A DNA stretch of 64,000 nucleotides from Giardia intestinalis (Eukaryota), in the NCBI GenBank assembly GCA_000002435.2, contig CM018792.1; one strand, given 5' to 3'. A model generated the notes under the pieces. It was not told the DNA's origin and ran no database searches. It saw nothing but the letters and a program-made list of their open reading frames with translations. This document shows positions 63,446 to 64,000 of this stretch, in pieces (positions within the stretch are counted from its first letter, which is position 1; the number at the start of each line of letters is the position of its first letter). Made by a program: the position numbers and the translations under genes.

Positions 63446-63449
63446 CCAG

Positions 63450-63456
63450 AGTAAAC
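63450..63456 (+). promoter_or_regulatory. Poly(A) signal AGTAAAC for the NEK2 gene
   Basis: TAG ccag AGTAAAC. Confidence 0.5.
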
Positions 63457-63496
63457 AGCGATCGTCTCTACATCAGACTTTACATCTCACAGCCCC

Positions 63497-63751
63497 ACCA
63501 CGCAGCAGGACTCCGGGGCCAGCAGCCTCTAGCGCGAGAGCGAACGCGGCTCAGGGAAGTCGGCAAGCCGGCTCCGTAACCTCGGGAAAAGGAGTGGCTC
63601 TGACGGCGCGCCGGGTCAGAACTGGAACGGACGCGGGGATCCCGACTGTTTACTAGAAACACAGCGTCGCGAGGGCCGCACCCGGCGCTGGCGCGACGTG
63701 ATTTCTGCCCAGTGCCACGACCGTCACTGTGAAGCGATCCGCCGAAGCCCT

Positions 63752-63803
<52 letters not shown>

Positions 63804-64000
63804 GGGCAATTTCCGACGTGCATGAATGGACCAACGAGGATCCCACTGTCCCGAGCCGCGCCTCCGCGAGCCTCCAGCCTCGGGAACGGGCGAGGGCCGG
63901 CCAGCGGGGCAAGAAGACCCTTTTGAGCTTGACTCCAGCCCGGGCCTGTGGGACGCACCTGCAGAGCGCAGGGCGGGGCGCGCCGAGAAACTGCTTTGCT
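63497..64000 (+). rRNA. Large-subunit (28S-like) rRNA, 3' portion only; 5'-truncated near 63497 and running off the window end
   Basis: A collinear set of universally conserved LSU blocks in sense orientation: CGCAGCAGG...AGCCTCTAG, GGGAAGTCGGCAAGCC...CCGTAAC.TCGGGAAAAGGA.TGGCTCT, GATCCCGACTGTTTA.TAGAAACA.AGC, GTGATTTCTGCCCAGTGC, GGTAAACGGCGGGAGTAACTATGACTCTCTTAAGGTAGCCAAATGCCTCGTC, GCATGAATGGA..AACGAG.ATCCCACTGTCCC, GGGAACGGGC..GG, AAGAAGACCCTTTTGAGCTTGACTC. No rRNA similarity is seen upstream of ~63497, where the NEK2 3' end lies. Confidence 0.9.

Follow-up and report, generated by a model that had tools for sequence, protein, structure and literature searches.

A rearranged remnant of the large-subunit rRNA gene beside a NEK/ankyrin gene of Giardia intestinalis, probably at the proximal edge of an rDNA-bearing subtelomeric domain

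Chromosome ends in Giardia have been described as carrying a “telomere gene unit”, composed of cysteine-rich/VSP, protein-kinase and ankyrin genes, which is followed by variable segments, rRNA genes and TAGGG repeats (PMC10999387, citing Upcroft 1997/2010 and Prabhu 2007). The same work documents a truncated 18S sequence at an rDNA-telomere junction. In the assembly of the WB isolate, 18S, 5.8S and 28S genes are found at most chromosome ends, 4 of the 10 ends reach telomere repeats, and the 28S genes comprise 4 complete, 5 partial and 12 pseudo copies (Xu et al. 2020, PMC7000408). Rearrangement of telomeric rDNA has been held responsible for variation in chromosome size (PMC4985590, PMC4570179). 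Outside Giardia, rDNA adjacent to telomeres is known from Magnaporthe oryzae, Encephalitozoon cuniculi, Neurospora and Arabidopsis (PMC1635262).

The 64,000-nt stretch of G. intestinalis DNA analysed here (“the window”) resembles the telomere gene unit in that a VSP gene, a kinase with ankyrin repeats and rRNA sequence follow one another in the same order and orientation. The VSP gene, recognised from its ORF and translation, occupies positions 54545-60496 on the plus strand and encodes 1983 aa ending in ...CRGKA. It is followed on the same strand by a gene for an 861-aa NEK-type protein kinase with ankyrin repeats (60860-63445; stop codon at 63443-63445), and a remnant of the large-subunit (LSU) rRNA gene lies directly distal to the ankyrin portion, 48 nt past the stop. 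The window differs from the published unit on three counts: kinase and ankyrin repeats share a single 861-aa ORF instead of forming two named genes; the VSP gene carries 222-bp repeats, not CRP136 or CRP65; and the rDNA that is seen is a rearranged remnant, the window stopping 54 nt into a piece of spacer. A comparable gene pair is found in isolate DH (contig L001, positions 2-5242; GCA_000498715.1, AHGT01000153.1), where a VSP gene precedes a NEK/ankyrin paralogue (59% identity) on the same strand. The approximately 900 bp between that pair and the contig end contain no rDNA; hence the VSP and NEK pairing is not confined to rDNA boundaries and does not, in itself, prove a chromosome end.

The identity of the VSP gene bears on the placement of the locus. 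A Pfam match to PF03302 (8e-23) covers the C-terminal 232 aa, and a 222-bp tandem repeat (26.0 copies, 100% matches by TRF) spans positions 54604-60366. The older WB assembly includes a gene, vsp13 “LA_TR222”, that maps to chromosome 4 and has 8 copies of a 222-nt repeat. The data are consistent with the window's gene being vsp13, the 8 copies against 26.0 suggesting that the repeat was collapsed in the older assembly. The perfect identity of the 26 copies may be due to concerted evolution or to polishing of the consensus. As a side effect, the repeat leaves three reading frames open, and two spurious ORFs, each longer than 1900 aa, appear on the antisense strand; separately, a homologue search with an antisense ORF of the window returned one distant match only. 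We rejected an assignment to vspA6, whose repeats measure 195 bp as opposed to 222 bp in the window, and likewise set aside the order of genes in the vsp table as a guide to position along chromosome 4, the table being sorted by contig.

The NEK/ankyrin ORF contains protein kinase (Pkinase, 5.6e-31) and ankyrin (Ank_2, 3e-99) domains in Pfam searches, and its product matches, with 100% identity and coverage, a protein annotated “Kinase, NEK” from G. intestinalis ATCC 50803 (WB), encoded on a contig of 2,761,001 bp. This length fits the 2.79 Mb determined for WB chromosome 4 by optical mapping (PMC2996952), and the locus is probably on that chromosome. The C-terminus (...EEILAILSK*) parallels that of the isolate DH paralogue (...EEIVAILTK*), indicating that the gene is complete and not truncated. 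Housekeeping genes for myo-inositol-1-phosphate synthase, NMD3 and an NLE/WD40 Notchless-like protein also reside in the window (within 1166-4349 and 34676-36121), approximately 27-63 kb from the rDNA junction and intermingled with members of the ankyrin, NEK and LRR families. The distances imply that any subtelomeric domain at this locus is short.

Between the NEK stop codon and the rRNA sequence lie 48 nt of unique DNA (63446-63493, plus strand) that resemble no portion of the rDNA unit. This segment includes the heptamer AGTAAAC (63450-63456), a candidate for the Giardia polyadenylation signal AGTRAAY. The motif occurs no more than 45 nt from the stop codon in 3 of the 19 ORFs of the window, the VSP and NEK genes among them, as compared to 1.3% of random 48-nt windows, which is suggestive of a signal without proving it. 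The earlier reading of this DNA from the letters alone (the sequence-only reading) had placed the stop of a protein gene, with AGTAAAC, about 50 nt ahead of the rRNA sequence, and the kinase-ankyrin ORF and its flank agree with it. GC content is about 0.49 before the unique/rDNA junction and about 0.64 after it.

A search against Rfam identified eukaryotic LSU rRNA (RF02543) at 63537-64000 on the plus strand, with a score of 362.3 bits (E 5e-95) against a gathering score of 50. The match spans model positions 1891-2507 of 3401 and stops at the end of the window. Thus the claim that LSU rRNA lies in sense orientation at the 3′ end was well founded, as was the claim that nothing of the SSU, the 5.8S or the 5′ part of the LSU precedes it: all three are absent from the whole window, both in the Rfam search and in a BLAST search with an entire 5565-nt rDNA unit. 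Indeed, Rfam found no other rRNA in the 64 kb, and a permissive scan of 60000-64000 added only two sub-threshold, snoRNA-like matches. Two models of archaeal-type C/D-box snoRNAs, sR53 and sR1, overlap at 61327-61381 on the minus strand, within the coding sequence of the NEK gene; with scores of 17-19 bits and E values of 0.25-0.33, far under their gathering scores, these matches are most likely due to chance. Over the last ~40 nt of the RF02543 alignment posterior probabilities are low (3-7), and we regard this portion as forced.

Alignment at the base level required Giardia rDNA units for comparison. One 2293-bp contig of Giardia LSU (L002), from a human-gut metagenome, was found with a Giardia-specific LSU 30-mer, which had no match in a scan of genome contigs. 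Through a spurious 280-aa antisense ORF of L002, a protein cluster of 24 sequences was reached, which in turn yielded 33 more Giardia rDNA contigs. Contig L027 (5565 nt) corresponds to exactly one rDNA unit; read in the sense direction, as reverse complement (rc), it has the SSU at 961-2410, the LSU at approximately 2647-5209 (~2563 nt) and a spacer of approximately 1316 nt. All LSU positions given here were computed from this unit, with the 3′ end of the LSU as defined by Rfam at rc 5209.

The reference contigs fall into three lineages. A common one (L004-L025) is 97.2% identical to the window, with L022 at 95.0%; a closer one (L026-L029) is 98.2-98.4% identical (98.2% for L026/L027), and a rarer one (L034/L035) 97.1%. 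At positions 22-24 of the SSU, the common lineage reads ATC and L026/L027 read GCG, which we take to be the assemblage B-type and assemblage A-type signatures, respectively, of the standard genotyping region. The results are consistent with L026/L027 being assemblage A-like and closest to the WB-derived window, the comparison units themselves being metagenomic and not derived from WB. The intergenic spacer varies in length and sequence even within one LSU lineage (L014, L015, L020, L012, L026), with segments of 100-530 nt uncovered relative to L027/L008, and this variability accounts for the spacer piece of the window matching the references at 85-93% only. Among the 34 Giardia rDNA contigs, no other junction between rDNA and unique DNA was found. 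Two MEGAHIT contigs, L004 (37-7665) and L017 (1-1662), depart from the canonical unit in the 3′ region of the LSU and run into unrelated sequence, L004 doing so some 150 nt short of the LSU 3′ end and terminating in a second, different SSU 5′ end. We did not retain either as a real rDNA junction; both are probably assembly chimeras formed through conserved rRNA sequence.

Comparison with these units resolves the last 507 nt of the window into two pieces. The first is an internal LSU fragment of about 455 nt (63494-63950, plus strand), which corresponds to LSU nucleotides ~1468 to ~1925 of ~2563 and to Rfam model positions ~1891 to ~2440. Going by its conserved blocks, this piece comprises domain IV and just enters domain V, whose remainder, with the peptidyl-transferase centre, is presumably missing, as is the whole of domain VI. 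The second piece is intergenic spacer (63947-64000, plus strand), from about +100 to +157 nt past the LSU 3′ end, and is cut by the end of the window. Measured against a complete LSU gene, the sequence is deficient on both sides: homology begins only at nucleotide ~1468 of ~2563 (model position 1891 of 3401), the 5′ domains being absent, and 744-745 bp are missing from the 3′ part, with spacer in their place. Judged on this structure, the fragment cannot yield a working LSU rRNA, and we regard it as a dead rDNA remnant, not a gene. It also does not amount to “roughly the last third” of the molecule, as had been proposed, since it starts 57% of the way in and covers only nucleotides ~1468-1925.

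The join between unique DNA and LSU (junction 1) maps to position 63494 (±3 nt), on the plus strand, in alignments to L002, L005, L027 and L034, and coincides with L027rc position 4114, that is, with LSU nucleotide ~1468 of ~2563. At the base level, alignment to the Giardia references starts at 63494-63497, in accord with the start near 63497 predicted from the letters. In the 293 nt upstream from the junction, similarity to the LSU is at chance level (best local score, 9), and no rDNA upstream of this point came up when complete units were compared with the entire window by BLAST. The 30-mer that crosses junction 1 is TTTACATCTCACAGCCCCACCACGCAGCAG.

The second junction marks a deletion of 744-745 bp whose joint falls at 63944-63952 (plus strand). 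Up to this point the window is colinear with L027, with 94 identities in 94 positions at 63850-63943 and 47 in 47 at 63900-63946; beyond it, the colinear register drops to 23 of 54 (63947-64000). When the register is shifted 744 nt downstream the pattern is inverted, with 42 of 94 matches before the junction (63850-63943) and 46 of 54 after it (63947-64000). When complete units were searched against the window by BLAST, the spacer piece was recovered independently: L027rc 5309-5364 aligns to window positions 63944-63999 ungapped and with 87.5% identity (E 5.7e-12), L026 is 92.9% identical over 42 nt (E 7.9e-11) and L005 is 85% identical. Three reference units, representing two lineages, agree on an offset of 744-745 nt. 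Because the LSU and spacer pieces have the same orientation and colinear order, a deletion is the simplest reading. Judging from the alignments, it took out domain VI and what remained of domain V, together with the LSU 3′ end and some 100 nt of the spacer. At the crossover the window has GCCTGTGGG; the corresponding LSU sequence is GCCTGTGGG in L005 or GCC-GCGGG in L027, and that of the spacer is GCCTGAGGG. The two partners of the join thus share a microhomology of 3-9 nt, GCCTG(T/A)GGG. The 30-mer across junction 2 is AGCCCGGGCCTGTGGGACGCACCTGCAGAG.

These data bear on the simplest account of the locus, also that of the sequence-only reading, in which the LSU gene is truncated at its 5′ side alone, continues to a normal 3′ end and is followed by tandem units. 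On this account, the divergence past 63947 would reflect only a lineage-specific expansion segment. The Rfam alignment does extend to 64000, the last 48 nt can be aligned, in a gapped and forced manner, to the expansion segment of the references, and the comparison units are metagenomic, none being of strain WB. But the poor posterior probabilities over the last ~40 nt of the Rfam alignment (3-7) weaken the first of these points, and the expansion segment missing from the window is identical across all three reference lineages and unlike the window in each of them, the 23 matches in 54 positions being near chance for GC-rich sequence. Functional copies of the window's own lineage would be expected to carry the shared segment; that they should differ there appears very unlikely. 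The 54 nt in question match spacer without gaps at 46 positions, with E values of 5.7e-12 and 7.9e-11 in two units. We consider a plain 5′ truncation very improbable. Colinearity is lost past 63946-63952, and the rRNA segment is short and internal, ending in spacer without reaching the LSU 3′ end; this outcome, which had been named beforehand as contradicting the proposal, leads us to abandon it.

An artefact of assembly deserves consideration, as long reads through repetitive rDNA at a contig edge might have been wrongly assembled or collapsed in the consensus, creating one or both junctions. Ribosomal DNA is multi-copy, gaps in the rDNA persist in the WB assembly alongside numerous small rDNA contigs (PMC7000408), and the 100% identity of the 26 VSP repeats could partly reflect consensus polishing. 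On the other hand, both junctions are less than about 500 nt from unique sequence, so that multi-kilobase reads anchored in the NEK gene would be expected to span them, and the assembly was checked against an optical map and polished with Illumina reads (PMC7000408). Junction 2, moreover, bears the signature of a biological microhomology deletion. For these reasons, an artefactual origin seems highly unlikely.

The remnant shows few signs of decay. Five changes are private to the window at positions invariant across the three reference lineages, and only one of them is in the last 409 nt (63538-63946). The fragment has thus hardly decayed, suggesting that it is young or has undergone gene conversion with live rDNA. 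The other four changes, one of them a 1-nt deletion, cluster in the 44 nt next to junction 1 (63496-63537), in an interval that is also variable among the reference lineages. The cluster could stem from an expansion segment that varies between lineages or from error-prone repair of the joint.

Whether the remnant belongs to a chromosome-end domain is a separate question. Conceivably, it is an interstitial orphan relic of rDNA at a chromosome-internal site, left by a healed ancient end or inserted as filler DNA, in which case unique DNA would resume soon after 64000 and neither a live rDNA array nor a telomere would lie close by. The fragment is short and already rearranged, no TAGGG repeats are present within the 64-kb window, the window also holds the inositol-1-phosphate synthase, NMD3 and NLE/WD40 genes, and the paralogous VSP and NEK pair of isolate DH lacks rDNA in the ~900 bp downstream. 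In addition, the 12 pseudo and 5 partial 28S copies of WB (17) exceed the ten chromosome ends (PMC7000408), and most WB vsp genes, including those with repeats, have been reported to be chromosome-internal, the few subtelomeric ones being probably all on chromosome 5, according to an older, incomplete assembly (Adam et al. 2010, PMC2996952). All this is countered by the order of the genes, which is that of the published unit preceding rRNA genes and telomeres (PMC10999387), and by the occurrence of rRNA genes at most WB chromosome ends (PMC7000408). Furthermore, a single private change in 409 nt is easier to understand if the fragment is young or homogenised by a neighbouring array. Flanked by unique DNA on its 5′ side and, as far as the window end, by spacer on its 3′ side, the fragment has a sense orientation that faces away from the unique DNA, as would the first unit of an outward-running array. 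Taken together, these considerations make an interstitial location unlikely.

We therefore favour the interpretation that the last 507 nt are a dead, rearranged rDNA remnant at the proximal edge of an rDNA-bearing subtelomeric domain, probably that of chromosome 4. Full rDNA units and a TAGGG telomere would be expected to follow distal to position 64000. The idea, put forward from the sequence alone, that the window captures a boundary between chromosome-specific DNA and rDNA is upheld in part: a sharp boundary inside the LSU does exist behind the VSP-NEK/ankyrin pair, but the LSU does not continue to its 3′ end as that idea supposed. As to origin, the scars in the sequence lend themselves to the following scenario. 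A break just distal to the NEK gene may have been repaired with an rDNA-bearing chromosome end as partner, in an illegitimate join, or as template for copying, which would have created junction 1 within the LSU. Junction 2 would have come from a deletion bounded by two short, near-identical motifs (GCCTGNGGG), whether through microhomology-mediated end joining, replication slippage or template switching. On this view, the remnant would represent the scar of a chromosome-end rearrangement.

A variant on this theme would make the LSU-spacer remnant a fixed boundary module shared by several chromosome ends and kept nearly identical to live rDNA through gene conversion. Should this be so, such a module would provide a homology anchor for the exchange of rDNA-telomere cassettes between chromosomes and would underlie rapid changes of chromosome size in Giardia. 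We rate this variant as quite improbable.

Among known systems, the nearest relatives of the remnant are the partial and pseudo 28S genes of WB (PMC7000408), which like it are truncated, non-functional and part of the same genome; the window's copy is almost certainly one of those already annotated. The published description gives counts only, whereas here the breaks are mapped and both the 744-bp deletion and its microhomology are described. A second likeness is to the distal ends of the rDNA arrays, with which the locus shares an abrupt break inside an rDNA unit and, probably, a chromosome-end domain. These distal junctions with (TAGGG)n repeats, the subject of work by Adam, Nash and Wellems in 1991 and by Le Blancq et al. 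in 1991, reportedly fall in the spacer or close to where the LSU begins. They differ from the window's junction in being on the telomere side; the latter is a centromere-side join between unique DNA and rDNA and has no telomere repeat. The parallel with the subtelomeric rDNA of other eukaryotes, where a terminal rDNA domain likewise borders unique DNA, is a general analogy only, as both the organisms and the structure of the units differ from Giardia.

The boundary beside the NEK gene therefore belongs to a class that is already known. What the present analysis adds is the base-level anatomy of one proximal rDNA edge in WB, with an LSU copy made by two illegitimate joins, one of which (junction 2) has a clear microhomology. 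In practical terms, the results are of use in annotating this copy as a pseudogene and not as a partial gene, in counting rDNA copies, and in designing PCR or read-mapping assays specific for one chromosome end. Interest in the locus would grow if both junctions were to recur at other chromosome ends; otherwise, it matters little beyond annotation, as one more member, now described to the base, of the set of truncated 28S copies in the WB genome.
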